Source of the DNA: Folioceros fuciformis
Taxonomy: Eukaryota
DNA: 45,681 nt
NCBI GenBank assembly: GCA_049999805.1
Contig: JBNGIO010006247.1
Location: 154,817-200,497 of the forward strand
Reading direction: 5' to 3'
The notes below the pieces were generated by a model. That model worked only from the letters and a program-made list of their open reading frames with translations. It made no database searches and was not told the DNA's origin. The position numbers were made by a program, and so were the translations under genes. Positions 6,664 through 39,500 of the stretch are shown one piece after another. Position 1 is the first letter of the stretch; each line of letters opens with the position of its first letter.

Positions 6664-9600
6664 ATGGCCACAGTATGGCAGCCGGACTCGTTGTGGATCC
6701 AACGAACTGGTGTGTGTACAGGGAATCCTCAAGGAGCTCTCGCCCACCTTGTCATGGAGAATCAACCCCTAGCAAGCAAAGCCTTCAGGTGCAACAGTGT
6801 GAAGATCTCAGCACTTCCACTTCCGATAGAATGTGAGGGTGTGGACAGGTTTTCCAGCGATGGTCGTTGTCAGGAGCAGGAGCACTTGTGGCAACAATTT
6901 TTTCTGGACCCTGCCATTTGGTGGGACAACAGACGAGATAAGAAGAGCTCCAGGTCGCCTGACTTCCGACACAAAGGGTCCGGCAAGGTCCTGTGGTTAA
7001 ACAGCGTGTTTAAGCCAGCCTGGGTTGATGAGGAGCTCCTTTCCTTGGATGTGCAGATGAGTCATGGTTCCTCTTCGACCAAGGCCACCTCTCTGGATAA
7101 ACTTGAACCTGACAGGCGTGTAGGATCGAGAGTGCCCGTCATTACAGCTGTAACAGTGAGCACCCTATGTCAGCAGGGGAAGCTTTCTGAGGCCGTTGGG
7201 GCCCTGGAATCACTGGCGCAGACAAACTCTGCTATTTCTCAGTCTCTGTTATGCGTTGTGCTGAAACTGTGCACAGATAAGAAGGATTTGGTTTTGGGGC
7301 GACGAGTTCATGATCTCAGTGTCAAACTTGGCCACGAGTCGAAAGCATACTTGGCGAACCATGTCTTACGCATGTATGCCTGTGGAGGTAGGCTAGAGGA
7401 GGCCATGGATGTGTTCACCAGGGTAGGCAAGCCAGATGTCATTACGTGGGGTTCCATCATATCTGCATATGCTAAACATGGGAAACCTAACGAGGCCATA
7501 CACTTGTACCATGAGATGCGTAGGTCAGGAGTGAAGGCGAATGGTCACGTCTTTGTAGCTGCCCTTCAAGCTTGTTCATTTGCTGCTGACTTGGAATTGG
7601 GCAGAAAGGTGCACTGCGATATCTTGCACTGTGGCATTCCTCCTAACATGTTTGTTGGCAACTGTCTAGTGGACATGTATGCGAAATGTGGTGAACTGAA
7701 ACAGGCACGCCAGGTTTTTGACAGCATGGCCAAGAAGGATGTGGTGACATGGAATGCCCTGATGTCTGGGTATGCAAAATGTGGTGAAGTGGATGAGGCA
7801 CGCCAGATTTTTGACAGCATGACCATAAGGGACGTGGTGACGTGGAATACCCTGATTTCTGGGTATGCTGAGCAAGGGCTTGGACATGAGGCATTTGTTC
7901 TGTATGGACAGATGGAGCAGGATGGGCTGATTTTGGCCAACCATGTTACTTTTGCTTGCCTTCTGAAGGCCTGTGCATGCACTACTGCCTTGCAGAAGGG
8001 CAGGCAGCTGCACTCACTGATTGTTGAAAGGGGACTGCTGGATCACGTACTGGTTGGCAACGCTCTGGTTGACATGTACGCAAAGTGTGGTGAACTGGAA
8101 GATGCACGCCGCCTTTTTGACCGCATGCCCATAAAGGATGTGGTGACATGGAATTCCCTGATAGCTGGGTATGCAAAACGAGGTGAATTGAAAGACGCGC
8201 ACCAGATTTTTGACGGCATGAGCACGAAGAATGTTGTGACATGGAATGGTTTGTTTTCTGGGTATGGAGAGCAAGGACTGGAGCAAGAGGCGCTTGTACT
8301 CTATGAACAAATGGAGCAAGAAGGCCTCATTTTGGCAGATCATGTTACTTTTGCTTGCCTTCTGAAGGCCTGTGCAAGGACTGGTGCCTTACAGACGGGA
8401 AGGCGGCTGCACTCACAGATCGTGGAAAGAGGACTGCTGGATAACGTACTGGTGAGCAACTGCCTGGTAGACTTGTATGCGCAATGTGGTGAACTGGAAG
8501 AGGCACGCCATGTATTTGATAGCATGGCCACTAAGGATGTGGTGACATGGACTGCCCTGATATCTGGGTATGCTAAGCAGGCTCTCAGCCAGGAGGTGCT
8601 TGTCCTGTATGGAAAAATGGAGCAGAACGGCCTTATTTTGGCTAGCCATGCTACATTTGCTTGCCTTCTGAAGGCCTGTGCAAGCACTGGTTCCTTACAG
8701 AAGGGCAGGCAGCTGCACTCACAGATTGTTGAAAGAGGACTGCTGGATAACACATTGGTGGGCAACTGCCTGGTGGACATGTATGCAAAGTGTGGTGAAC
8801 TAGGGAATGCACGCCAGGTTTTTGACAGTATGAATACCAAGGATGTGGTGACATGGACCACCCTAATAGTTGGGTATGCACAGCAAGGACTGGGCCAAGA
8901 GGCGCTTGTTCTGCATGGACAGATGGAGCAAGGTGGTCTTGTTTTGGTTAACCATATTGCTTTTGCTTGCCTTATAAAGGCCTGTGCACGCACTGGTGCC
9001 CTGCAGAAGGGCAGAGAGCTGCACTCACGAATTTTTGAACAAGGACTGTTGGATAACGTAGTGATGGGCAACTGCCTGTTGGACATGTATTCGAAATGTG
9101 GTGACCTGGAAGATGCACGCCAGATTTTTGACAGCATGAGCACGAAGGATGTAGTGACATGGACAAGTCTGATAGCTGGGTATACACAGCAAGGGCTGGG
9201 CCAAGAGGCGCTGATTCTATATGGACAAATGGAGCAAGAATGCCACATTTTGGCTGACGATGTTACTTTTGTTTGCCTTTTGAAGGCCTGTGCGAGCACT
9301 GGCGCCTTACAGAAGGGCAAGCAGTTGCACTCACTAATTGTCAAGAGAGGACTGCTGGATAACTTAGTGGTAGGCACTGGACTGGTGGACATGTATGCAA
9401 AATGCGGTGAACTGCAAGATGCACGTCGGGTTTTTGACAGCTTGGTCACAAAGAATGTAGTGACATGGAATGCTCTGATAGCCGGGTATGCTGAGCAAGG
9501 ACTCGGTCAAGAGGCGCTTGTTCTGTACGGACAAATGGAGCAAGAGGGCCTCGTTTTGGCTGACGAGGTTACTTTTGTCTGCCTTCTGAAGGCCTGTGGC

Positions 9601-10983
9601 AGTACAGGCGCGTTACAGAAGGGCAGGCAGCTGCACTCACAGATTGTAAAACGAGGAGCACTTGATGACGTAGTGGTGGGCAACTGCCTGGTGGACATGT
9701 ATGCAAAATGTGGTGAGCTGAAAGACGCACGCCAGGTTTTTGACAGCATGGCCACGAAGAATGTGGTGACATGGACCGCCATGACAGCTGGGTATGCACA
9801 TCAAGGACTGGGTCAAGAGGCGCTTGTTCTTTATGGTCAAATGGAGCAAGATGGCCTGAATTTGGCAGACCATTTTACTTTTTCTTGCCTTCTAAAGGCA
9901 TGTGCAAGTACTGGTGCCTTACAGAAGGGCAGGCAGCTGCACTCACAGATTGTCAAAAGAGGAGTGCTGGATGACGTAGTGTTGGGCAACTGCCTGGTGG
10001 ACATGTATGCAAAATGTGGTGAACTGGAAGATGCACGCAGGGTGTTTGACACCTTAGGTACGAAGGATGTAGTGACGTGGAATGCTCTGATATCTGCTTA
10101 TGGTACTTGTGACGATGGTCACAGAGCGCTGGCTTGTCTTGAGGAGATGTTAGCTGCCGGCATTCGGCCTGATGGTACTACTTTTACTTGCCTCCTAGCA
10201 GCATGCAGTCATGAGGGATTGGTCCACGAGGGCCGCAAGCTCTTTGATTCCATGGCTAAACAGCATGGCATCAAACCCACTGTGGAGCATTACAACTGCA
10301 TGATTGATCTTTTTGGGCGCGCAGGCCATTTAAATGAGGCACTGAAGATGCTTCTGTCATACGAGGGTCATAGTAATCTTGTGGGCTTGACGGCTTTGCT
10401 GAATGCCTGTAAGAGTCACGGGGATATAGAGAAGGCGATGTGGTGTTTCGAACGTGTTGTTGGGCTGGAGCCCAAGGGGGCGTCTGCTTATGTTCTCATG
10501 GCCAATGCCTTCGCAGATGCAGGTAGGTGGACCGATGTGGACAGGATTGAGACGCAGAGAAGGATAGCAGGAGCTAACAAGAAACCTGCGGTTACGACCT
10601 TAGAGGTGAATAATCAGATCCACAGATTTGTGGTGGGAGAAAGGAGAGAGGATCTTGCACTCAAGGTGGAGAGCACGAATGCACGTCTGAAGCAGGAAGG
10701 AGGCCACATGCCTCACACAAAATTGGTGTTCAAGCCACTGTCTGAGAAGGAAAAGGAAGACGTGCTTTGTGGGCATGCCGAGAAGCTAGCCCTCGCGTTT
10801 GGTCTCTTGAATACTCCAGGTGGGACACCTCTGGTGGTGACGAAGAATCTACGCATGTGCAGTGACTGCCACAGTTCCACGGAGATTATGTCGAGGCTTG
10901 AACAAAGGAACATAGTTGTAAGGGATGGATACCGTGTGCATCGATTCTCAAATGGCTGTTGCAGTTGTAAAGGTCGACAATGA
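6664..10983 (+). CDS. PLS-class PPR protein, 1439 aa, intronless: N-terminal OSB-like PDF motif, ~31 PPR motifs, E1-E2 and a variant DYW:KP (GRP-like) deaminase-fold domain; candidate organellar U-to-C RNA editing factor
   Basis: Repeating P (VVTWxALIxGYAxQG), L (VTFACLLKAC) and S (VGNCLVDMYAKCG) motifs plus two SS motifs, then P2-L2-S2-E1-E2. The terminal domain reads KKPAVTTLEVNNQIHRFVVG...LCGHAEKLALAFGLLNTP...KNLRMCSDCH...RDGYRVHRFSNGCCSCKGRQ*. Confidence 0.95.
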   Translation: MATVWQPDSLWIQRTGVCTGNPQGALAHLVMENQPLASKAFRCNSVKISALPLPIECEGVDRFSSDGRCQEQEHLWQQFFLDPAIWWDNRRDKKSSRSPDFRHKGSGKVLWLNSVFKPAWVDEELLSLDVQMSHGSSSTKATSLDKLEPDRRVGSRVPVITAVTVSTLCQQGKLSEAVGALESLAQTNSAISQSLLCVVLKLCTDKKDLVLGRRVHDLSVKLGHESKAYLANHVLRMYACGGRLEEAMDVFTRVGKPDVITWGSIISAYAKHGKPNEAIHLYHEMRRSGVKANGHVFVAALQACSFAADLELGRKVHCDILHCGIPPNMFVGNCLVDMYAKCGELKQARQVFDSMAKKDVVTWNALMSGYAKCGEVDEARQIFDSMTIRDVVTWNTLISGYAEQGLGHEAFVLYGQMEQDGLILANHVTFACLLKACACTTALQKGRQLHSLIVERGLLDHVLVGNALVDMYAKCGELEDARRLFDRMPIKDVVTWNSLIAGYAKRGELKDAHQIFDGMSTKNVVTWNGLFSGYGEQGLEQEALVLYEQMEQEGLILADHVTFACLLKACARTGALQTGRRLHSQIVERGLLDNVLVSNCLVDLYAQCGELEEARHVFDSMATKDVVTWTALISGYAKQALSQEVLVLYGKMEQNGLILASHATFACLLKACASTGSLQKGRQLHSQIVERGLLDNTLVGNCLVDMYAKCGELGNARQVFDSMNTKDVVTWTTLIVGYAQQGLGQEALVLHGQMEQGGLVLVNHIAFACLIKACARTGALQKGRELHSRIFEQGLLDNVVMGNCLLDMYSKCGDLEDARQIFDSMSTKDVVTWTSLIAGYTQQGLGQEALILYGQMEQECHILADDVTFVCLLKACASTGALQKGKQLHSLIVKRGLLDNLVVGTGLVDMYAKCGELQDARRVFDSLVTKNVVTWNALIAGYAEQGLGQEALVLYGQMEQEGLVLADEVTFVCLLKACGSTGALQKGRQLHSQIVKRGALDDVVVGNCLVDMYAKCGELKDARQVFDSMATKNVVTWTAMTAGYAHQGLGQEALVLYGQMEQDGLNLADHFTFSCLLKACASTGALQKGRQLHSQIVKRGVLDDVVLGNCLVDMYAKCGELEDARRVFDTLGTKDVVTWNALISAYGTCDDGHRALACLEEMLAAGIRPDGTTFTCLLAACSHEGLVHEGRKLFDSMAKQHGIKPTVEHYNCMIDLFGRAGHLNEALKMLLSYEGHSNLVGLTALLNACKSHGDIEKAMWCFERVVGLEPKGASAYVLMANAFADAGRWTDVDRIETQRRIAGANKKPAVTTLEVNNQIHRFVVGERREDLALKVESTNARLKQEGGHMPHTKLVFKPLSEKEKEDVLCGHAEKLALAFGLLNTPGGTPLVVTKNLRMCSDCHSSTEIMSRLEQRNIVVRDGYRVHRFSNGCCSCKGRQ
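7830..10080 (+). repeat. Coding tandem repeat of ~306-bp P-L-S triplet units inside the PPR gene
   Basis: Near-identical nucleotide blocks such as cagaagggcaggcagctgcactcacagattgt and ggcaactgcctggtggacatgtatgcaaaatgtggtga recur every 306 bp, or 399 bp where an SS motif is inserted. Confidence 0.9.
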
Positions 10984-11481
10984 GAAAGTTAGAGGAACTA
11001 GTCAAGCTATCCTGCGACGGAAGGGAAGGTGTAGGCGATCTGTTGTCAGGCCTCGAATTCGGAAGTGAAATTCTCTTCCAGAGCTCGTGAATATTTCCTG
11101 TTTCACCGTGGAATTCTATGCATTCGATGCACCTAACTGGGCTTCTCCGGAAAGGTTTTGTCGATACAAGGGCAGTGTTTTGCAACTTGCAGGGCATCCT
11201 TAAACGCAAAATTGCGAAGTGCCGCACCTGGCTGATGTCTCCTATATACGTTGTTGTTGGGATGGATAAGCCAGGGCACGCAAGGGAGAAACGAAGCTTT
11301 CCTGAGTCTCTTCTCCACACCTTTGGCAGCAGTATCTGCTCTCCTACCATTGCCAGCCAGCAGTGGTGTGGAACAAAAGCACCTCCATGATGCTTGACAT
11401 GGTTGGTTCCAGTGCCGAGACCATCTACTGCTGCCAAGAAAAAATCATGTATGTTACAGCGCACTGTGGCACATAAGGTGG

Positions 11482-12640
11482 CTACTCCTGTGCCATGATA
11501 TCAGAGATGGATAAGGAGCCTGAATTGTCACGGTCCAGCAACTTGAATTCTCTCAGAATCTCGGTAATGTCGTCCTCCTCGACTTTGCCCAACTCTTTGA
11601 GCTTGAACAGCACGAACTCGGAGGACCTGAAGGCAGGGGATGAATGTTGCTGATGAGAACCCACAGTCGGGGAACAAGGAGATGAAGAGAGCAAAATTCA
11701 GCTCGTTTGCTCACCTCACTTTGCCATCGTTGTCGAAATCGGCAGCTTCCAGGTCTGAGATAGTTGTCTTTCGGGTGAGAACATACTTTGCCATGGCTTC
11801 GTGTCTCGATTCCGTTTGCATCTCCGCCAGAGCTAGAAAGAACTGGGCCACGAACAGAGTGCTGAGGAGGATCCAGGCTGAGCCGAAGAGGCGGCCTTGC
11901 CAGGTTCGGAAAGTTTGGTCACCGTAGCCCAGGGTCGTCGCTGTGACGCAGACGAAGTAGACTGCATCTATCAGGCTCTTCTCTTCCACCGTCATGAGGA
12001 CTACCAGTCCAGTGGCCAAGATGCCCAAAACCAGAAATCCTGTGAATATGGCCTTGACGTAAGCCTGCTTGACGTGAGACTCGTCCTTGGTTATGGCGTC
12101 GATGAGGTAACCCTCCTGCTTCATCACTAAGTAGTTGGCAGCACTGCTGAGCAGGATGCCCACAAGCCCAAATCCCAAAAACAGGTACACGATTGTGAAG
12201 AACTTGGCGGGGGTGCTGTTGGGGACAATATCCCCGTAGCCTACTGTGGTCATGGTGACGATGCAGAAGTAGAGAGCGTCCACCAGGTTGCTCCCTGTTT
12301 TGTGGCCCTCCAGGTCGCTGGAAGTGAAGTAGAAGAGGACAATGCCTGCAGCAAGGTAAGCTAGGAGAGCCACCAGGGCGGTTGTCAGGATAGCGGAAGT
12401 CTCCCTTTTCTGGTTGAAGGGCAGCAAGTCCACAGACTTGGCCACAGATGGAGGACATCGGTCTGCAGACTCGGTTGATGGAGATGAAATCGAGCGGGTC
12501 AGTCTCTTCTTGGGTGCTCCTGTGCTTCTGCTGAGGAGGTCCTTACTGGACTGGCTGAGCAGAGGTTCTTGTATGGCCGCATTCGCGGAAGTCACATTTC
12601 CGTGCCCAGACGCTTTGTCGGATTGCGATTGCTTACTCAT
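11482..12640 (-). CDS. TPK: Two-pore K+ channel (TPK family), copy A (exons 12640-11715 and 11626-11482)
   Basis: Four TM segments, two pore loops (TMTTVGYGD, TATTLGYGD), C-terminal EF hands (DLEAADFDNDGKVR-SSEFVLFKLKELGKV, DRDNSGSLS) and an N-terminal 14-3-3-like site (LTRSISSP). Confidence 0.93.
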
Positions 12641-13239
12641 TTTCCTCGTGCGTGTCTGCAGAGGAAAAATAAGTCCACTGTTCCGTGAAATGTGCCAGAT
12701 CTGAGCGAAGCCGACAAGGAGAAATGCGAACGCGCTCACCAACCGCTTGGACCCGGAAAGGTTTGAAATCGCCCGACAGCAGTAGCTCCACCTCGGAGTA
12801 GCCCCCGGTTGACACTGGAAACCCAGCAACGCAGGAGTCCGCTCACCTCATCCAGACCCTGTCTACTCGATTCTCCAGCGCAAAGAGCTGCTCCAGCTGT
12901 GCAACGCAGAGCAGCCTACAGTTTGGCTACGCCAGCTCCATGGCAAGTGGGTCCCGATGGTCTCTATTTGCAAGCCCATGACGCACGTTCACTAGTCTAG
13001 CAGGAGCATCTGTCACAATGCCTACAGCAGGATGTCCTGAAAAGTTTCGGGGCGCCGACCAGCTGATGCTGTGAGAAGCTTGGGCAGACACAACGTACTA
13101 GAATTTATACTCTCTTTCCCGCGCAGCAGACTTCAAGGTCCTGAGATCCCGCAAACCTCTCCATTCCATTGGCACACGCGTTCGCAAGTACGAACAAATC
13201 TGAAATCGCTACAGGAAAAGCAGGATTGCTGGACTGCTG

Positions 13240-14422
13240 CTATTGCCAGCCCAAACCGTGGCGATTCAAATCTGATGCAGACAAAATCCCCGAGCCATCC
13301 ACATCCAGAGCTCTGAATTCCTTGATGAACTTGTAGATGTCAGCCTCTGTGATCTTGCCCAGCTCTTTAAGCTTGTAGAGGACGAAGTCTGATGCTCTGC
13401 AGAAGCAACGAAAATGTGAGGCAAGTGAGGGCTGTGCAGGACCATGGTAAGGAGCTTAGAGAAGGAAGAATGTGAGACGGTCACCTGACTTTCCCATCCT
13501 CATCAATGTCAGCTGCCTCAAGATCTGCAGTGGTGGTCTTACGAGTGAGCACCCAGTTGGCAAGATGCTGCTGCTTCTCCTCCGTCCTCATTTCCACCAA
13601 CGACAGCAAGAGCTGCGTGACACAGAGAGTGCTGAGGATGATCCAGGCCGAGGCAATAAGCCGGCCAGTCTGAGTCTGGAAGCTGTGGTCTCCATAGCCA
13701 AGTGTGGTCATGGTGACACACGCGGCGTAAAATGCATCCAGAGTATTCTTCTTCTCCGCGATCATGAACAGAACCACTCCGAGAGCAAGCATGGTGAAGA
13801 CGAGTATGGTTGTGGTTAATACCTTCCAGTGGGCTGATTGAATGGGGTAGTCCACCCGCAGCTGCTCCTGGACGGATGCATCCGCCTTCCTGTAAATAGC
13901 TTTCAACAGGAATCCCTCCTGTTTCATCACCAGGTAATTAGCAGCCCTGCCCAGGAGGTAGCTGCAGAGCCAAAAGCCCCCTACGAGGTAAACGCAAGTG
14001 AGGATCTTCGCCACAGGCGTTGCCGGTGTGATATCCCCGTATCCGACTGTTGTTATGGTCACAATGCAGAAGTAGATCGCATCCACCAGGTAGCCTGTTC
14101 TCAGCCCCTGCAGACTGTTCGCAGCCCGATAGAAAACTAGCACGCCGGCAGCCACGTAGCCCAGCAACGCCAGAACAGCGTACACCAGAGTCCTGGATGA
14201 TAGATTCTTGGTCCTCAAGGGAAGAACTTGTAGGCTGGTCCTCACATTGCATCTCTCAGCATCGGTGTGAGCCGGAGCCGACTTGGCCCTCATGTATCTC
14301 TTCGGCCTTGGTCCATTGCGATCTGGGTCACCCTCTTGTGAACTGCCCGACTCGCCTATCAGAGGCTCGTGCAAAGCAGCAGCTTCCACAGGCAACGACC
14401 TGGCCTTCACCAAGTCGCTCAT
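13240..14422 (-). CDS. TPK: Two-pore K+ channel (TPK family), copy B (exons 14422-13485 and 13396-13240)
   Basis: Pore loops TITTVGYGD and TMTTLGYGD, EF hands DLEAADIDEDGKVR-ASDFVLYKLKELGKI and DVDGSGILS, and a 14-3-3-like site (MRAKSAP). The intron position matches copy A. Confidence 0.93.
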
Positions 14423-19538: not shown

Positions 19539-20318
19539 TCAGGCAGCAGTGGCTGCAGGCAAACTGGGGATGTAGGACTCCAGCATGAGCCGTGTTGGGT
19601 AGGGGTTGGTGACATCCACAATCAGGTACGTGAACTTCCAAGTCCTATCAGCTTTGTCTTTGTACATCTCGCTGTGCACCTTGCCAGCCCCTTGTGGCCC
19701 GCGGATGTAAAACACCACCTCACATCTCTCCACCCCATCTTCATCTGTCCATGTCCGGTTGGCGATTCGCTGACGAGCAGCCCGGTTTCTGCTCTCCTGC
19801 CCGTAGCCGGTGATCGGTGATCCCAACCGCACTGTCACTTCATTGTCTTTCTGCACCCTTTCCAGTGCCTTGCCGAAAATCTTATACTCCTTAGGCTGGA
19901 GAATCAGCTCCTTGAACACGGCGTAGGCGGCTGCCCCTGCCACGGCCAACCCTGCCAGAATCACAATGCTGTAGGAAGCGCCCTCTGCAACAGTGACCGG
20001 TTTCTCGGGGATCCTGTCCGTCAGCGGATCGAAGGGGTCCTCCTCCTGCGTGGCTAGGTCGCCTTGACTGCTCTCCTTTTGAGTACTTGCTGCCCGCTGA
20101 AAACGGCGGAGGCCTCCAGCAGAGTAGGGGAATCCGCAGCCCACATCACGAAAGCTTCGCGGAAACGGTTGCGGGGCCCTGGAGCATCCAGATCCAGGAA
20201 CCTGGTGCAGCTTCCTTGTATACTGCCCCCCTCCGATTCCATGCCTCACGATGGCGGGATGCACTGCTGATCCAGCCTGCAGCTTCCGGAGGACCTCCCG
20301 CCAAGTTCTCGAAAACAT
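19539..20318 (-). CDS. TIM21: Mitochondrial import inner membrane translocase subunit TIM21, single coding exon
   Basis: Arg-rich presequence ([13 protein letters not shown]), one TM segment ([23 protein letters not shown]) and the Tim21 domain [56 protein letters not shown]...FTYLIVD. Confidence 0.92.
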
Positions 20319-22834
20319 AGCGGACAGTGCCACAACAAGCAGCTGCGCTTGCAACAATGACCAGCAACTCGATGTCCTCAATCACATAATTTCTCAGCCA
20401 TTCTTGTCATCAAATGTCTGTCTCTGCGAGCTCTGCGATGTTGCATCATTGCATCCGATGTCCTAAAACCTAAACCCACGAGCATCTCTCGGGGATCAGA
20501 GCGCTGTGATTGCCAGCCCAGTCAGACACCCAGTTCCATCACACAACGGACCTCCCAATGCTCAGACCAGTGGCAGGCAAAGGAAAGGTTGCCACAAGGC
20601 TGGGAACACACGCAGCGTGAAATTCTTTCACCGGAAGAAACCAGTAAACCTATTCGTATGGGTCGAGGTCCAAAGACCTAATTTCAACTTGAACCGACTC
20701 ACTGCCAGTTCTCAAAATGCGAACAATTCCTGCTCGGACGAGATCATATGCTTTGCAAGGGATACACACAGGATACATCTGAATGCATTTGCACCCTGGA
20801 CCAGCTCGCGTTCTAATTTGGTGCTCTCATTTGCCACATGATTCAGGGCTCACAGCCGTAGTAGGATTGTATTCTTGTTCAGGGCGGAGGAAAAAAATTA
20901 AGGAACATGAGGCATTTGGTGAGTTCACGAGTCCACGGAAGGCTTGACACAAATGAGTAAGGCATGGAAACCAGTGTGTTTAGTATGGCTTCCTTCGTAG
21001 GATTGACCAATGGCTTGATTTGGTAGTTGCCATCGTCTTGAGTGCCATGGCAAGTCTTGCACCCGCAGGAATGGCCTTCCAAGATGTGGTCTGATCTGGT
21101 TTATGTACAGAAGGACCAATTTTGATGCATAGGTACAAGAAGAAGACGGAGGATTTGCTCATTGGAGAGTGTTCCCTCGAACATGTACCTCCTCCGCGTT
21201 CGTACGACGTTGGAAGTAATTGGTGAAGCCTTGGAGTGGTGTGATCCTCTTGAGAACCTCGATGATCCCCGCGTGGATTGTGTACTGGAAACCTGAATGA
21301 TTTGCTCCGACAACGCACGTATGTAAATTGTCTTTGTAACGGGAAATGAGAAATTCTCATTTTCCTCAGGTTACCAAGTCAGACACAGTTACTCGCAGGG
21401 TGGAGTTGGGAATGGCAATCCAAATGAGGAAGGCAGCCTCTGGCGATTCCAAATACGGGACGCAACTCCAGCTTGTGCAGAAACGGTGTAATACCACAGC
21501 ACGGAATGGACAGCTCCATTTTTGTTTTAGGTTTATGGGACTTAGGGTACGGACGCGCGAGGAGGAGATGCTTTTGAGCAGCTTGGGACCCGCTGCGGAT
21601 GAGGCTGCCGTCAAGCATCCAGCCCTCAGCGGTCGCCCACTCCGGGAGATTTATTCTTCACGATTGCAATTTTAGCCATGGAACCGTTGCGACAAAGTGG
21701 CCTCACATCTGAAAGGGGGGCCCGCGTCCCGAAGCTCGTGGCAGGCACACGAGTACGGGCCGCGTCATTCAGCATGATTGATTCATTGATTCATTGATGG
21801 GTAGTGGATACATGCGAGCACCCGAGTGTGCCTCAAGCACGGAAGTTGGGGAGAGCCGCAGGATTGGCACAGAATAGTGATTTTTTGTCACGAGTTCGGG
21901 CCCGCGAATTGGAGGCTACGAGCACCGTGGGAGCGAGGCGTTCAGCTCTTGCAAGGATTGGGTGTAGAATTGGCGCAGGGCTGGGAGCAGAGTGCGTGGC
22001 CAAGGAATTTTTGGCGGTGTGCAGGATTGTCGGAATGATTCTTTTCCTCTGCATTGCTGGAGGGAACAGGGCGTGGCTGCAATGTTGAACAGGATCGTAC
22101 GGAGTCGGATGCGCCCCTCTGGTGTCGGGATTGGCAAAGCTAAGAGCTGATTGAGCTCTGTCTTGGGCTAGTTTGGTCACAGCGAGCCGTGGGGAGGTGC
22201 GCCCGCATGTGTGATGGATGGCTGTTGCGTGACCCGCGCTCGGGTGAATAGCTCCTTGTTCTGGGCAATAATGGATCCGCGGGAATTCAATGCCTTTACG
22301 TCTCTTTCTGTTTCCGTCCAGAACCTGTTGGATGGCAAAGGACTTGCCTTTCGTCAGTTGCAGAATTCGAAATAATATTTGGGACTTCGTTGTGGCGATC
22401 GTGCGCTGAAGGCGTCAACAGGTATTCAACGTGAGTCTCGATGAGATGGTTGGTATTGTTGCTTGCAAATTGGGGTGCCATCTGAAGATATCCCTTCTGG
22501 AAGGTTAACCCGTGATACTACGGTTGCGTTGGATTTACTGGATTTTGTCGGTGTGTGAATCTGCTGAGCCAAATCTCTCTGATGTGTGGAAACATGATGA
22601 GGAGCGAAGTTTCTTGTAGACTATCAGGTATCATCTGATGTGGAGAGAGAGCTGCTTAAGGTTTTTTTAGAAGTAGTAGCTTCAGTACACGGATGTACTC
22701 GAGATTTTCAACAAGCTGTTCAGATGTTTCAGACGTTCCCAACGGAAGTATGGAAGAGTGCCTGTGGTTGATTTTTTTAGGCCTTTTGCTTGTTCTGACC
22801 TGCGTTCCTTCCTGTGCTCCGCCAGGTCCGCGAA

Positions 22835-27048: not shown

Positions 27049-27281
27049 GTGTGGAGCTTATGGATCACATGTAAAGCTGGGCCGCCAATGATCTATTGCT
27101 GCAGAGCGATTGTACTATAGTTGTACCAGTATTAATTTTCTTCTATACGATGCTGTTTGTGGCGTTGCAACTCAAGTGGTGTAATTGGCGTGCTACTTGT
27201 AAGGTTTGCTTTTGCCATCTTCCGTGGAATGGAGGATGAGAAAATTCGTTTTGTTCCGGAAACTTGTCACCTGAGAGGTCC

Positions 27282-29677
27282 TCAAGCTGTCCCTGCATTC
27301 GGAACATCGGCTGAGTGTCCGATAATGCCCCCGCCAAGATCCGGGAAAGTGTCTTGGCCGGGAAGAGGGTTACAGTTCCATCGTCTTCCACCTGGAGCGG
27401 ATATGTTAAAAGATGACTTCTCATGTCGACCACGGTGTCATCTGCGTAAACGGCCCAGTTATCATCGCCCATCTGCTTCATTCGTTGAGCGCATTCTAGA
27501 GTGTCAGGATCGGCGAAACAGGGCTCCAGAGCTCCGGTGTGCTCTGCCCAAAGCGACAGTCGGTATCCATAAACTTCGCCTTTAGGGTGACCTCCCTTCT
27601 TTCCCCAAGTGTAGGAGGGTTGGTATGCACCAATGGCAATCTCGGTATCGCGGTCCCCAGCCATAGATCGTTGATTTATATTGGCTGAACCCAGGATTAC
27701 AATTTCATCGTCAACAATCATTCCTTTAGAGTGGACAAATATGATGAACCGTCTAGACTTTAGAACAGTCTGGGTTGAGTTGGTTGGTGGTATACGCGGG
27801 CAGCGATCAGATGCAGACACAGTCTCACGGGTTCCCAGACAGAGGAACAGCAGGTAATCCTGAGGCTTGACCTTTTCATGCAGTTTTTTCGTCCGCAGAG
27901 ATTTAGCAATTATGGTGTACATCATCTTCATGGTCTGAGACTGGAAGAAGAGAATCTCCTGGACAACAGCTGGATGCATGTCCCTCCGGAAACATGGGCA
28001 TCACCACGTACACCATAAACCTCTCACCAGCTTTGATTTTGCCTGTTATCTTTAGCGCCAGTTCCATGGGAATCAGGTGATCTGCTTTATCTTTCCTGTA
28101 ATCTGGCCAATTGTAAGAAGACCCCACAAAGTATTGGTTCTCAATGTAGATGAAACGTTGAGCACGCCGAATAGCCTCCACATAAGCTAAATGGACGCTA
28201 TGATCTTTTTCCTGAAGGCCCCTGAAAGACGACATGCTGTCTTTCTGCTTCTTGAAAGTTATCAGGGAAGCATACGCAGGACCCTGAGTCGATAGATCTG
28301 AAAATCTGGGCGTGCCATGTTTCAGGATCATTGTCGGGAACAATATAGAGCTTGGTGTCGCCAATCACTGGAGAAGCCTTCACAGTCAAGCCCCACCACT
28401 GCTCGAAATTGGTCAAAACATCCTACGCTGCAGGGCCCTCAAGTTTGCAATGCAGGTCGTACCAAGGCTCTCTCGGACCGCCGTTTTCTTCCACATTGGG
28501 AAACATAGCTTGGTGATAGTCCCCCACGTGCACATTGTCCACGGTTCTGAACAGACTATGCTGTGGAGTGTTAAAACGCCCTCCACACAAGTCCAGGCCA
28601 CCCAGGAAGGCAACCAATTGGTGTGTCAGAGTTGGGTACAACAGCATCCACCAGCACAAAGTTCTGGTGGTGTGTGTACATGCCTGCCACGACCTTCTGC
28701 CGAAAGCAGCCTATCTTGGTATCTGTGGAACGAGTAGAGAGACGACACAAAACATTCGTGCCCTTGAAGAAGTTCATGGTTTCTTCGCCACGTGTGACCG
28801 TCACTCCTCCCCCTGTCACATTCTTGCTGTCATTCGAGGTTGTGTCGCGCCAAACTAGCAATTGCACCCGGACTCCTTGACTTTTCTGTGTCAAGAGCTC
28901 TCCTAAGGAAATTTGCTCTCCACCAGGAATGCTTGGGGAAGGTCGTGTCAACTTTAACTCGTGCCAAATCGACCAGTCGGCGATGAAAACAAGGTCCTTT
29001 GCCTTCAATAATGGATTGCTGATTTCTTCCCAACACCTTCCACGCTCAAAGTTCTGCCCCCGTTCAAGAGGAATGTCAGGCAGACCTGGCTCGACATGAG
29101 CATCCTGAAACAATCTCAGCCGGCAACCTTTCCTAAGAGGGAAGTAGACCCTGTGTATACCGTGGTACTCTGGACCTGCGCCAACACCTTTAGCAGATGG
29201 GACAGCAAGGAGATGGACCGACAGTCTCAGCTGAGCATCGTCATGCAAAAGTCGTCCTCCTGGCCCAAGAATGTCGAACCAGCCCTCCATCTTCCTGCCC
29301 AGTGATAGATCCTTAGCAGAAATATTCACACGTCCAATTGCTCCAGCTACTATGGAGACATCATCGCCTACTTTGAAAATCAGATCCTCGGCACGATGGG
29401 CTACAGGTATATAAAAGTGCTCATGCCAAACTGGATGCTCTTGATTATTCCTGACCTGAGTCCTTGCAAGTCTTGCACCAGCGAGAGCGACTGAAACATA
29501 AACATCACAGGAGCGGTACCCTGCTGACGTCGGTAAACAACTGCGACAGACATCGAGGCACTGCCGGCATCTCCCAGCTAGCTCATCCAAATCTGGAAGA
29601 CATTTTGCCTCAAGCACCCATACATCCAGTGTTCCATGCAGGAGCACAGAATCTTTTTGGTTGAGTATAGCTGCCAT
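27282..29677 (-). pseudogene. PLD: Intronless C2-domain phospholipase D with disabling lesions (probable processed pseudogene)
   Basis: C2 domain (LLHGTLDVWVLEAKCLPDLD), [61 protein letters not shown] and [29 protein letters not shown]. It carries four frame changes (~28620, ~28220, ~27980, ~27368), an in-frame TAG at 28423-28425, and a first HKD motif that reads HHQNFVLVD. Confidence 0.85.
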
Positions 29678-36500: not shown

Positions 36501-39500
36501 GGGCTTTCAAGCCAGTGACAAACTAAAATTCCAAGCTCTTCTGCGATTGAGAAGCCCATACTCGTTTCATTCTTACATCCATCACAAATGTGTTTCACAG
36601 ATTGTGACTTTCTATTGCCGCACCTAGAGGTGCGAGAAGAAATAACCAAGATCAGATATGCGAGAAGATCTGTCTCCAGCTCGTGGACAGATCCATCCTT
36701 AATCCAAGAGGATATTTTTGAACAGTGAACACAGGCCTTTAGACCTGCCTGCAACGCTGCGAAGGGTCGCCTGACAACAGACATGACGGAGGTTAATTTT
36801 GTCCCCCCAGTCACTTTGGAGCCGCCATCTTTTAGTTCATCCAGTATTGAAATAACCCTGCCAGAGATACTTGAGAGGACCAAATTATCACGTATATGGG
36901 AATCTCCTAGCCTCTCGCACCAGCTTCGCAGGAAAGACAGAACAGCCAAGAAAGATGGTCCACAAACGAATTGACCTGGAGGATATATACCACTATCTGT
37001 AGGAACTGACGCAATGGCATGTCTCCTGCAACGTGATAACAATAATAACACAGCAAGAGCTGAGGGAACAATGCTCATTGCAAGAATTCCTTGGTTCTGA
37101 ATTCCAGTCATAGAACTTTCTACGGACTCCAGGCACCTCTTAACGCCTTCATTCTGTCTGTTAAGCACAGCCTTCCCTAGACCTTTCCTTAACCGTAGGT
37201 ATTTAGGACCCAATATTCCTATGTCACGTGTATTACGTTCCAGATTGTTGAAAACATATGTGGCATCCGAGATCAGCTGCTCAATAAACACATTATCATC
37301 TTGGTTGCCCTGGTACACCTCTGAAACCTCGGCTTCAAATGCATTTCCACTTTTCACAATTTTGGCATCCAAACAGAGATCGCTCGAAATATAATTCACA
37401 TCTTGGACATTAGATGAGCTAAACTTCTGCAATTTTCTGCGAAGCAATGAAAGACACCTGAGTTCTGATTCTTAATCATACGGTTGTGTGCAAAGGTGAT
37501 ATAGTTAGAAGACCTACTGCAAGAAGTCCAGGCCACCGTTACTTCCAGATTTCTGAAGCAATATCACAGAACCGTAGATTTTCTTCGACTTCTCACTTGT
37601 GAAGCCTTTGGACTGAAATGCAGCCATCAGCCTGTAGTAGTGACATAAGAAAGTATTAGCACTAATACTGGTAAGCCTTGGGTTCTCTAGTGAGAATGCA
37701 CCAACGGAAAGAGCACCTGATCTCAGAAACCCCATCAAGTTCCTCCAGCAAAGCAGATCCAGCGCTGACAGATAGCCCAAGCTGCTCCAAAACATCCAGC
37801 TTTGTATTAATCGACAGAGCTGATAAACCTGTAGGCCAATCATGAGAATCAGCTGGATGAACAACAGGCAGAAAGGATATGTTCAAGCATGGATGCTTTA
37901 GGGACCATCACACTGAGGTGACATATACCTGCTCTACTGACTCTGATATCTTTGCTTCTGACGAAGCCTACAGCTTGCATCTCTGACAAGAGGGAAAACC
38001 TCTTCCCACCTCCAATCTCGAGCCATGCCATTGAACAATCGTCCGTCCATGTAGATGTTGAGGAGTTGAAGTCCATGAACCCAGGGATTAAGAGCTTCAG
38101 ATATTGACCATACAATGCTCCCCACATATTCTCTCCATCAGTGTTGGCAAGCACTGAAAGCAGCTGTATTCCTGCATCGACTACCATCTTGTGCAGTTCG
38201 ACTCGCAGAACATCTTTGTTGGTCTTTGGTGAAACCAGTGTTACCAGTGGAGTTGTGCTTGCCGTGATGAGGTTCCAACCCGAATCCGCGGCAGTCCCAC
38301 CATGCAGCGCAGTAAGAACTGTTTCAAGCATAAATTCAACCGTAGAATTATATTTTAAAGGGCCGGGTACAGCCTGCCTATGTTCATAGTCTGAACACAA
38401 GCAAGTGGACAGTAATCTCCGCCGAACCACGAGGACAGATACGCAACACGTTAAGGACGTGCATGGCGGCAAACATTCTGAATGCTTGTGCAAGAAGTTC
38501 AGGTAGGCTATCATCTGCAACAACCCAAAAAAGGAAAAAGAAAATCTGTTCAGTATCCAAGGCAACTGACGCTGGTATCAGTCAATTGAGATGCAAAAGT
38601 GACTCAGGCGATAAAAAGTCATACCACTTGTACTGAGCTCTCCGTCTGAAACGCCAGCTGTAAGGACGGCGCCAATGCTGCAACCAGACTAGACTTCGTT
38701 GGGACCTCGCTTACGGATTGGAGCCAGTCACAGCTATCCCCACCACTTGATCCACATGCAACCCCAGTATCCGACGACCCAATTGTACAGACATGCTCTG
38801 ACCTTGGTTCAGAAACAGCCTCAGTGAATAGAAGTGTAAAACACCTCCGTGCACAGGAACGGGCAAGACTACTTCTGGAAGCCAGCCTTTCGGCGAGGAA
38901 CCCCCCTATCATTTTCACATCACTATCATCCGGTTGACTGTCTGCTCTTAAGATCTTATGCAAGTTGGAAATAACTCCAGATACATCAACCATCTGTGTT
39001 TCACAAGCGCCTCGTGATCCCTCATGCATGTAGAGTAGCTCACACTGTAGAGGCCACCAAAAAAAAGTTAGTTAGTGAATCTACTGAAGTAAGCTCAAAG
39101 GATGTTACAAATCCACGAGGGTCCGTACCTGCCACAGACATGGGAGAGCTGTCACCGCATCTGGATCCGAGAGTAATACTTTCTCCAACCACGGCCACGC
39201 TTCTCGCAATGTCTGCAGTTCAGATTTTAAGTCACCTGTGTGTTTCAATTTTAGCACCTGAAGGACTCGCATCAACCCTACTTTCACATTGGTATGCATC
39301 ACTGGTGGGGTAGCAATAGCCAATCAATCATCTCACAACCAATTTTGTCACACAGCGAAATCAGACACTTGTCCACACCTGGCAGCTTGTAACGTGTCTA
39401 AAGAAATTGGGGCTTCTGCACTTCCGCAGCATGCGACCTAGCTGATACTCTTCATTAATGTGATCCACCTGCTGAAGTACAGATGTAGGGGGTTGCCTGG

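Follow-up and report, generated by a model that had tools for sequence, protein, structure and literature searches.

A land-plant PLS-class PPR gene with a GRP-like DYW:KP domain ending in GRQ, a candidate U-to-C RNA editing factor

The DYW:KP domains are the sole enzymes known for U-to-C conversion in RNA, and the versions assayed so far are consensus designs only. They are distinguished by a KP box, an Ala or Cys in place of the Ser of HSE, the lack of xHP and an end other than DYW (PMC11845758, PMC9478123), as well as by a length of 132-133 aa and a Met at position 92, in KNLRMC, where PG domains have Val (PMC9478123). Within DYW:KP, GRP is a hornwort subgroup with two specific changes, the tail Asp (D134 of PG) to Gly and a conserved Lys (K103 of PG) to Glu (PMC9478123). 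Its consensus designs KP2 and KP3 carry out U-to-C editing, with no C-to-U editing, in both E. coli and HEK293T (Ichinose et al. 2022, PMC9478123). Lys88, which is kept in PG domains as well, is essential for U-to-C editing by KP domains; a mechanism involving a Lys88 crosslink has been proposed, and designed KP proteins stay crosslinked to their RNA. The fern-based designer KP6 edits both U-to-C and C-to-U, and it is tipped toward C-to-U by single substitutions, among them those of Lys88 and of positions 64, 113 and 133. The choice between HAE and HSE does not decide editing direction (PMC9478123). As of 2025, natural KP proteins were described as being of unknown activity (PMC11845758).

Here, we describe a gene that is probably a land-plant nuclear gene, most likely from a hornwort, encoding a PLS-class PPR RNA editing factor with a DYW:KP end of the GRP subgroup, a GRQ variant of the tail and a predicted role in U-to-C editing. 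It is the only PPR/DYW gene detected by tblastn in the window, that is, the whole stretch of 45,681 nucleotides analyzed. The gene consists of one unbroken ORF of 4.3 kb (1439 aa plus a TGA stop), in which an N-terminal OSB-type PDF motif precedes approximately 34 PLS-class PPR motifs, E1-E2 and, at the C-terminal end, a DYW deaminase-like domain (table 1). The PLS-class order is borne out by the Pfam PPR families, the E_motif and segmentation, with P1-L1-S1 triplets followed by P2-L2-S2, E1, E2 and DYW. Positions 10579-10983 (+) translate into the final 134 residues and the stop, the last codons being tgt aaa ggt cga caa tga. Contigs from two sequencing runs, X1 and X3, span position 10918 onward, including these last codons, with zero differing letters; both runs derive from one sample, which may be the assembly's own source. 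In X2, a run guessed to be RNA, the intergenic 3' flank is covered as evenly as the gene, so that this coverage is no sign of expression. Matches to the neighboring PLD exon, none of them above 58% identity, are spread over many land plants and do not narrow down the taxon.

Table 1. Coordinates of the features of the PPR gene in the window.
Feature	Position	Strand	Basis
ORF: PDF motif, PLS-class PPR array, E1-E2, DYW:KP	6664..10983	+	translation, Pfam, motif segmentation
OSB-type PDF motif, aa 73-132	6880..7059	+	sequence match to SSB-domain plant protein P0296; AF2 pLDDT 89.4
Three degenerate PPR-like motifs, aa 157-258, the third being a clear S motif of 31 aa	7132..7437	+	by-eye segmentation
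PLS array, aa 259-1135, P1-L1-S1(-SS) units, 26 motifs, 36-aa P1	7438..10068	+	Pfam, segmentation
P2-L2-S2 triplet, aa 1136-1238	10069..10377	+	segmentation
E1 and E2 motifs, aa 1239-1305	10378..10578	+	Pfam E_motif PF20431 (residues 1252-1314, E 4.1e-14), segmentation
DYW:KP deaminase-like domain, 134 aa long when counted from the first K and 133 aa when counted from the K of KP	10579..10980	+	translation, Pfam, trees, profiles, AF2 model
HAE: zinc-binding His, KP-type Ala, catalytic Glu	10774..10782	+	H and E invariant in 44 aligned domains
Putative active-site lysine of KNLRMC, Lys88 of the published KP numbering	10843..10845	+	invariant in 44 domains
CSDCH zinc motif	10858..10872	+	translation, 44-domain alignment
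Glu in place of the conserved lysine	10882..10884	+	85-90% of other DYW domains have Lys
C-terminal KGRQ and TGA, variant of the GGRP tail	10969..10983	+	translation

The assignment of the C-terminal domain to the DYW deaminases is clear. Taken alone, it matches Pfam DYW_deaminase (PF14432) with 116.3 bits (E 5.5e-34; cut-off 24), and the sequences of three proteins in the PDB, a synthetic PPR-DYW (9kfx, 2e-67), DYW1 (7w86, 7.6e-28) and the OTP86 DYW domain (7o4e, 6.7e-27). The AF2 model has a pLDDT of 93.3, and a Foldseek search with it retrieves 9kfx (E 1.8e-16, TM 0.94, rmsd 1.4), 7o4f (TM 0.79) and 7w86 (TM 0.75). The HxE(x)nCxxC signature is present as HAE and CSDCH, with H, E, C, C and H each unchanged across an alignment of 44 domains. 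The domain carries every printed hallmark of DYW:KP, namely the KP-A box, HAE, the lack of xHP, M92, a length of 133 aa and a non-DYW tail. The fourth column of the box is A, as in 71% of the KP clade, versus G in 93% of PG domains; the middle residue of HxE is Ala, versus Ser in 100% of 105 PG rows; M at position 92 is found in 81% of KP domains, while 74% of PG domains have V; and the end is GRQ, against a W in 94% of PG rows. At the sixth box position the domain has T, and 85% of KP domains have A. Gaps at the xHP columns of a 160-domain alignment are common to this domain and all 15 of its hornwort-like relatives. From the consensus of these 15 members it departs at 8 columns whose conservation among them is 85% or more. 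The 8 departures include the Glu, a GRP hallmark, and F74, which agrees with the consensus in the wider KP clade. In two other proteins of the comparison, P0010 and P0017, the zinc motif reads HAE; the labels HKE and HDE given to them by a regular expression were rejected as artefacts.

The branching pattern of the phylogenetic analysis agrees with this placement. In a quick tree of 160 domains, the domain falls in a KP clade of 53 rows (SH-aLRT 98). In a more careful tree of 82 rows, KP separates from the rest with a support of 99/96 and the domain lies within KP, in a 16-row clade (100/96) that also holds Nothoceros sequences; among relatives with a named source, the closest belong to the hornwort Nothoceros aenigmaticus. 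An AU test of moving the domain to the PG side did not reject that position (p 0.148, delta lnL 38.3). The KP state is found at five of the six columns that discriminate KP from PG, and the KP profile outscores the PG profile by 36.8-40.6 bits over 5 folds, with none of 157 held-out domains misassigned, the labels for both tests being taken from the 160-domain tree and the tests thus not fully independent of it. A previous sequence-only reading had put forward a GRP-like DYW:KP domain. Its class assignment is borne out by the motifs, the trees, the profile scores and the GGRP-ending neighbors described below. The motifs that it listed (a KKPA start, HAEKLA, CSDCH and the end CSCKGRQ before the stop) are exact in the translation of 10579-10983, and the shortened stretch that it noticed after the box is real, consisting of gaps at two columns where PG domains have H (91%) and P (76%) in the 160-domain alignment.

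Both GRP-specific changes are present, with a Gly at a tail position that is Asp in 65-88% of other domains, and the Glu at the lysine position (table 1). Two of the three residues of the Gly-Arg-Pro end match, the sequence here being Gly-Arg-Gln, and we therefore file the domain as a GRP-like variant and not as a canonical GRP. It forms a trio with P0002 and P0006, both ending in GGRP (100/97 in the 82-row tree, SH-aLRT 97 in the 160-domain tree); these two nearest relatives have 66-71% domain identity to it and the same PDF-PLS-DYW:KP layout. The proposal that GRQ is a variant of GRP thus finds backing in the two changes and in the trio, and on sequence grounds the tail is best regarded as a minor variant. 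The same reading had placed DYW:KP domains, GRP included, in hornworts, lycophytes and ferns, which for GRP is too broad, the subgroup being described from hornworts and not from lycophytes or ferns. Its view of these domains as leading candidates for a poorly understood chemistry is out of date, since U-to-C editing by designed KP proteins has been achieved in both E. coli and human cells, and a mechanism based on a Lys88 crosslink has been put forward.

The N-terminal region provides the least documented feature of the protein, a fusion of a PDF motif to a PPR protein that is common to both GRP relatives. No Pfam family was recovered with residues 1-157 at E <= 10, and a plant protein with an SSB domain, P0296, is their sole database match (E 1.1e-6). 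The similarity of residues 73-132 is to the motif located after the SSB domain in a plant OSB-like protein (39% identity over 71 columns, E 2e-17), and the P-D-F signature is present. An SSB/OB-fold domain was not found by Pfam in the 1439-aa protein, which because of this absence is not an OSB and shares the PDF motif only. The AF2 model of the motif has a pLDDT of 89.4; against the PDB, Foldseek returned nothing at E <= 0.001, and a wide VIA-align search reached a best Z of 4.5 with no nameable solved fold. A Protein Atlas match of the region to a phage cluster (best score 0.75) was discarded as noise. Further carriers of the motif are P0002, P0006, P0059, P0061 and P0086. It is present in three of three members of the GRP trio versus none of the 13 other hornwort-like KP proteins, some of which may be truncated at the N-terminus, and three PG-type proteins from a moss and a lycophyte carry it too. 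A literature search found no paper tying the PDF motif to PPR proteins. Tentatively, GRP-type U-to-C editors might form an architectural class of their own (PDF, PLS array, E1-E2, DYW:KP), in which the PDF motif would take an active part in editing, perhaps in target capture or holding, or in tethering to nucleoids.

Could the protein be an active editor in the canonical C-to-U direction, or in both directions, instead of in U-to-C alone? The precedent is KP6, with its two reactions and its shifts upon single substitutions, and the domain described here has G64 and V113 (published numbering), the residues that raise C-to-U editing in KP6; the HAE motif, for its part, has no say in direction. 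Against this, both GRP-based designs are strictly U-to-C in two hosts, Lys88 is present (a numbering checked against the published M92 and K88), and G64 is also the KP-wide consensus, found in 73% of the KP clade and in 100% of the hornwort-like rows. The KP6 positions were rejected as a predictor of direction because the mutant effects were measured in the KP6 background only. We thus regard editing toward U, alone or in addition, as improbable.

A further scenario is that of a recent or decaying paralog with no role in editing, the frame being intact but the target absent or the catalytic tail dead. The KGRQ tail is unusual, the 8 departures from well-conserved columns noted above point the same way, and short contigs that are 90-99% alike over the P2-to-DYW part number in the hundreds in three runs that share an organism label (733, 566 and 701 pieces), suggesting that the family is large and that redundancy among its copies is to be expected. 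Against this scenario, the 4.3-kb frame is unbroken. The PLS array contains a tandem repeat of 306 bp (8169-10096, 6.3 copies, 80% matches), and among 7 internal units the median dN/dS is 0.28, with 21 pairwise values of 0.17-0.47; the specificity residues vary from repeat to repeat. In the DYW domain, all 13 columns invariant across the 44-domain alignment keep their residue, and the zinc residues, the catalytic Glu and Lys88 are all retained. The confident model of this domain and the layout shared with P0002 and P0006, despite a domain identity of only 66-71%, likewise speak against decay, which we consider a poor explanation. Finally, many PPR proteins act without catalysis, and a very long array plus a second predicted nucleic-acid-binding motif could serve RNA binding alone, for example in stabilizing or processing RNA, but full conservation of catalytic residues would be needless for binding alone, and we consider this the least probable of the three scenarios. 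From the intact gene and its catalytic residues we infer instead, as did the sequence-only reading, an intact natural U-to-C editor.

As a U-to-C editor, the protein would, by analogy with its family, be imported into the chloroplast or the mitochondrion, where its approximately 34 PPR-like motifs may bind some 30 transcript nucleotides at one motif per base, with the S2 motif placed four bases upstream of the target. Read from the P and S motifs, the predicted target signature, 5' to 3' and with its last base at position -4, is U ? ? U U Y ? U Y U ? U ? ? U A ? U G ? A U ? Y G ? U U ? Y. The PDF motif would probably provide a further point of contact to single-stranded nucleic acid. The zinc center is predicted to consist of the HAE His and the CSDCH cysteines, with the HAE Glu as the catalytic residue. 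Lys88 would then attack C4 of the target uridine, producing a Schiff-base intermediate that is converted to cytidine, so that the expected net outcome, again as in the family, is U-to-C editing. With natural KP activity stated as unknown and only designs assayed, an intact natural gene of GRP type offers a usable test object. Pertinent questions for such a gene are whether the native protein completes turnover, how much weight the last residue (Pro or Gln) has and what the PDF motif contributes. Its value is nevertheless incremental, as genes of this kind are numerous in hornwort genomes and nothing about this copy makes it stand out strongly from them.

The comparison with known systems places the gene closest to the GRP subgroup and to KP2 and KP3, with which, by their published descriptions, it shares the KP-A box, HAE, the lack of xHP, 133 aa, M92, Lys88, the tail Gly and the Glu for Lys. 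It differs from the subgroup in its tail, KGRQ as opposed to GGRP (a final Gln for Pro, and Lys before the Gly), and the highest domain identity among all proteins found is 71%. Being consensus designs, KP2 and KP3 sit on a short synthetic PLS array, whereas the present protein is natural, with about 34 motifs plus PDF. The DRH subgroup (P0004 of Nothoceros aenigmaticus and other DRH-tailed proteins) belongs to the same 16-row clade, with 59-67% domain identity and the same KP hallmarks, but keeps the tail Asp (GDRH), mostly has Lys at the position of the Glu and shows the PDF motif in none of 13 proteins, of which some may be cut at the N-terminus. In OSB proteins, one or several PDF motifs come after an OB-fold/SSB domain, in contrast to the N-terminal PDF motif fused here to a PPR editing factor with no SSB domain. 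The canonical PG domains (OTP86, 7o4e/7o4f; DYW1, 7w86; the synthetic 9kfx), which catalyze C-to-U editing, have the fold (TM 0.75-0.94), the HxE...CxxCH zinc signature and the KNLR lysine in common with this domain, which in turn lacks the PG box, HSE, xHP and the DYW tail and scores 37-41 bits lower with the PG profile. The gene is a further member of the described DYW:KP family and not a new kind of enzyme.

The DYW domain described in the sequence-only reading translates as reported there (134 residues and a stop, starting with KKPA, containing HAEKLA and CSDCH, and ending in CSCKGRQ) and forms the C-terminus of an uninterrupted open reading frame (ORF) of 1439 amino acids. Pfam detects DYW_deaminase (PF14432) at an E value of 2.7e-32 with the whole protein and 5.5e-34 with the domain alone, together with PPR families along the entire protein (PF01535, 1.1e-169) and an E motif at residues 1252-1314 (4.1e-14). 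Sequence matches in the PDB are the synthetic PPR-DYW protein 9kfx (2e-67), DYW1 (7w86) and the OTP86 DYW domain (7o4e). An AlphaFold2 model of the domain, based on 44 aligned sequences (mean pLDDT 93.3), superposes with a TM score of 0.94 and an rmsd of 1.4 on 9kfx; for OTP86 and DYW1 the TM scores are 0.75-0.79. Since translation, Pfam, PDB and model results agree, the sequence details of that reading are all correct and a chance match is excluded.

The branching pattern of the DYW domains supports the proposed affiliation with the DYW:KP class. Relatives were collected by a word-based search (26 matches among 326 candidates) and by HMMER over 1.84 billion representatives (2426 matches at E <= 0.001, the best 150 being used); 160 domains from 175 proteins were retained, the other 15 being partial matches or without the HxE...CxxC motif. 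In a quick maximum likelihood tree of these 160 domains (HMMER part, best 150 of 2426), the window falls inside a 53-row clade (SH-aLRT 98) with KP-type boxes and mostly HAE or HCE (HSE in seven rows), whereas PG boxes, HSE and a DYW or DFW tail prevail in the rows outside. A more careful tree, with ultrafast bootstrap and SH-aLRT, comprised 82 rows: the window with the 52 further rows of the KP clade, and 29 outside rows (every fourth of the 107 remaining, plus the homologues P0070 and P0167). Here the KP clade is separated from the rest with support of 99/96, and the window groups with two GGRP-ending homologues, P0002 and P0006 (100/97). This trio is nested in a clade of 16 rows (100/96), most of them with a GDRH, GGRP or GERP tail, which includes two transcripts of the hornwort Nothoceros aenigmaticus (P0004 and P0008). 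However, forcing the window to the PG side costs 38.3 log-likelihood units, which is not significant in the AU test (p 0.148) and counts against the KP placement. In five-fold cross-validation the KP profile scores the window 36.8-40.6 bits above the PG profile (held-out KP domains, +6.3 to +53.1; held-out PG domains, -60.5 to -12.9; none of 157 misassigned), although the labels used here and in the column comparison below derive from the 160-domain tree, so that neither is fully independent of it.

According to the available parts of three papers, DYW:KP domains carry a Lys-Pro pair at the Pro-Gly of DYW:PG, Ala or Cys in place of the Ser of HxE, and Met92 versus Val95 in PG; they are 132-133 aa long, mostly without the xHP tripeptide, have a variable, non-DYW tail, and are found only in hornworts, lycophytes and ferns (PMC11845758, PMC9478123, PMC11332814). 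The window's domain has 133 aa counted from the K of KP, and the K and M of its KNLRMC are Lys88 and Met92, in agreement with the published numbering. Six columns of the 160-domain alignment (HMMER part, best 150 of 2426) discriminate KP from PG, each having one residue that reaches 70% or more of the KP rows but no more than 15% of the PG rows; five of these show the KP state in the window (counting from the first K: K2, A4, M93, E108 and V120), and the sixth has T instead of the KP residue A. In the same alignment the window has HAE where all 105 PG rows have Ser, is gapped at the H/P columns and lacks the terminal W. Hornwort DYW:KP domains form two subgroups named after their last three residues, DRH and GRP; as described in the part of the paper available, GRP proteins lack the otherwise conserved tail Asp and have Glu in place of K103, the Lys that bonds to this Asp in PG domains (PMC9478123). 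Both changes are found in the window, with Gly where 65-88% of other domains carry the tail Asp and Glu where 85-90% carry Lys. Eight residues depart from the hornwort-like consensus at columns conserved in at least 85% (L8, I14, A27, F74, V86, E102, G117 and K131, from the first K), with E102 being the hallmark of GRP proteins and F74 agreeing with the consensus in the wider KP clade. What the gene encodes is a natural editing factor of DYW:KP type that belongs to the hornwort GRP lineage and ends in GRQ.

The encoded protein is most likely a U-to-C editor. In the family mechanism, the PPR array would put the domain in position, and the HAE Glu together with the zinc centre would activate the base; the available parts of two papers have Lys88 attacking uridine at C4, which yields a Schiff-base conjugate that is resolved to cytidine (PMC11332814, PMC11845758); the active-site Lys88, conserved also in PG domains, is described as essential for U-to-C editing (PMC11845758). 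The designer proteins KP2 and KP3, based on GRP sequences, are reported to perform U-to-C editing, with no C-to-U activity, both in HEK293T cells and, at about 26% and 22%, in E. coli (PMC9478123). A 2025 paper, in its available part, gives the activity of natural KP proteins as unknown (PMC11845758), the accessible part of a December 2025 review cites synthetic proteins only, and titles and abstracts from 2023 onward yielded no paper with a native KP protein tested. Given that the family is well described and activity has been shown with consensus proteins, one added member is of modest interest.

The 4.3-kb reading frame is open, and the domain has the common residue at all 13 columns invariant across the 44 aligned domains, the Zn ligands, Glu and Lys88 among them. 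The PPR tract has about 34 motifs, running from three degenerate motifs through P1-L1-S1(-SS) units to P2-L2-S2 and E1-E2; the P1 motifs are unusual in having 36 aa rather than 35. The P1-L1-S1 units correspond to a tandem repeat, and among the 21 pairs of seven units dS is 0.34-0.77 and dN/dS 0.17-0.47 (median 0.28), so the units diverged under purifying selection. Their fifth and last residues vary (ND, NN, TN, TD and TS), as a working recognition array should show. In the PPR code, N-N stands for C or U. As printed in one paper, A is read by T/S-N, C by N-S, G by T-D and U by N-D, and the edited base lies 3' of the one aligned with S2, at a distance of four nucleotides (PMC12733224). Read by P and S motifs, the predicted target would be U-rich; taking the motifs from aa 227 through S2, the putative sequence runs U ? 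? U U Y ? U Y U ? U ? ? U A ? U G ? A U ? Y G ? U U ? Y.

Features of the window
Feature	Position	Strand	Evidence
PPR protein ORF	6664-10983	+	
PDF motif (aa 73-132)	6880-7059	+	
Tandem repeat	8169-10096	+	306 bp, 6.3 copies, 80% matches
DYW:KP domain	10579-10983	+	
Two ORFs, two Ion_trans_2 pore domains each	11711-12829, 13481-14422	-	E 1.4e-34 and 1.3e-30
TIM21 ORF	19539-20381	-	E 1.6e-26
Phospholipase D (PLD) ORF	27143-29677	-	C-terminal, active-site and C2 domain matches
Integrator subunit 1-like ORF	37849-38565	-	Weak match

The window consists of plant nuclear DNA that is compact and rich in genes. The two Ion_trans_2 ORFs, which lie directly downstream of the PPR gene, resemble a tandem duplication of two-pore K+ channel genes; no protein found exceeds 58% identity to the PLD exon. 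In sequencing runs X1-X3 of the same organism label, short contigs that are 90-99% alike pile up by the hundreds (733, 566 and 701) on the P2-to-DYW part (10100-11017), whereas coverage of the 3' flank comes from single contigs; this suggests that the source organism has a large family of DYW genes resembling one another. X1 and X3, which come from one sample that may be the source of the assembly, have contigs without differences from 10918 onward, so the GRQ-stop ending is no isolated error of the assembly. In X3, three loose contig ends would read Pro-stop past 10978, with an agreement of only 0.6, a weak hint of paralogues ending in GRP.

The most novel lead lies at the N-terminus, which matches the PDF motif of OSB proteins (organellar proteins that bind single-stranded DNA); this motif of about 50 aa suffices for ssDNA binding in AtOSB1, according to the available part of the paper (PMC6963530). 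Residues 1-157 have a single database match, a plant protein with an SSB domain (E 1.1e-6); the alignment lies in the part following that domain and has 39% identity across 71 columns (E 2e-17). The modelled motif (pLDDT 89.4) is a helix, a small sheet and a helix, and had no match among solved folds. Iterated search of the 296 collected proteins found it in 5 of 174 other DYW proteins (HMMER part, best 150 of 2426): P0002 and P0006, and the PG-type P0059 (Sphagnum compactum), P0061 and P0086 (Diphasiastrum complanatum). It was found in none of 13 other hornwort-like KP proteins, some of which may be truncated. A literature search, whose reach excluded subscription papers and supplementary files, returned no paper connecting the PDF motif with PPR or pentatricopeptide. 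In the window's PPR protein, the PDF motif of OSB proteins is fused to the N-terminus of an editing factor, an arrangement shared with its closest, GGRP-ending relatives.
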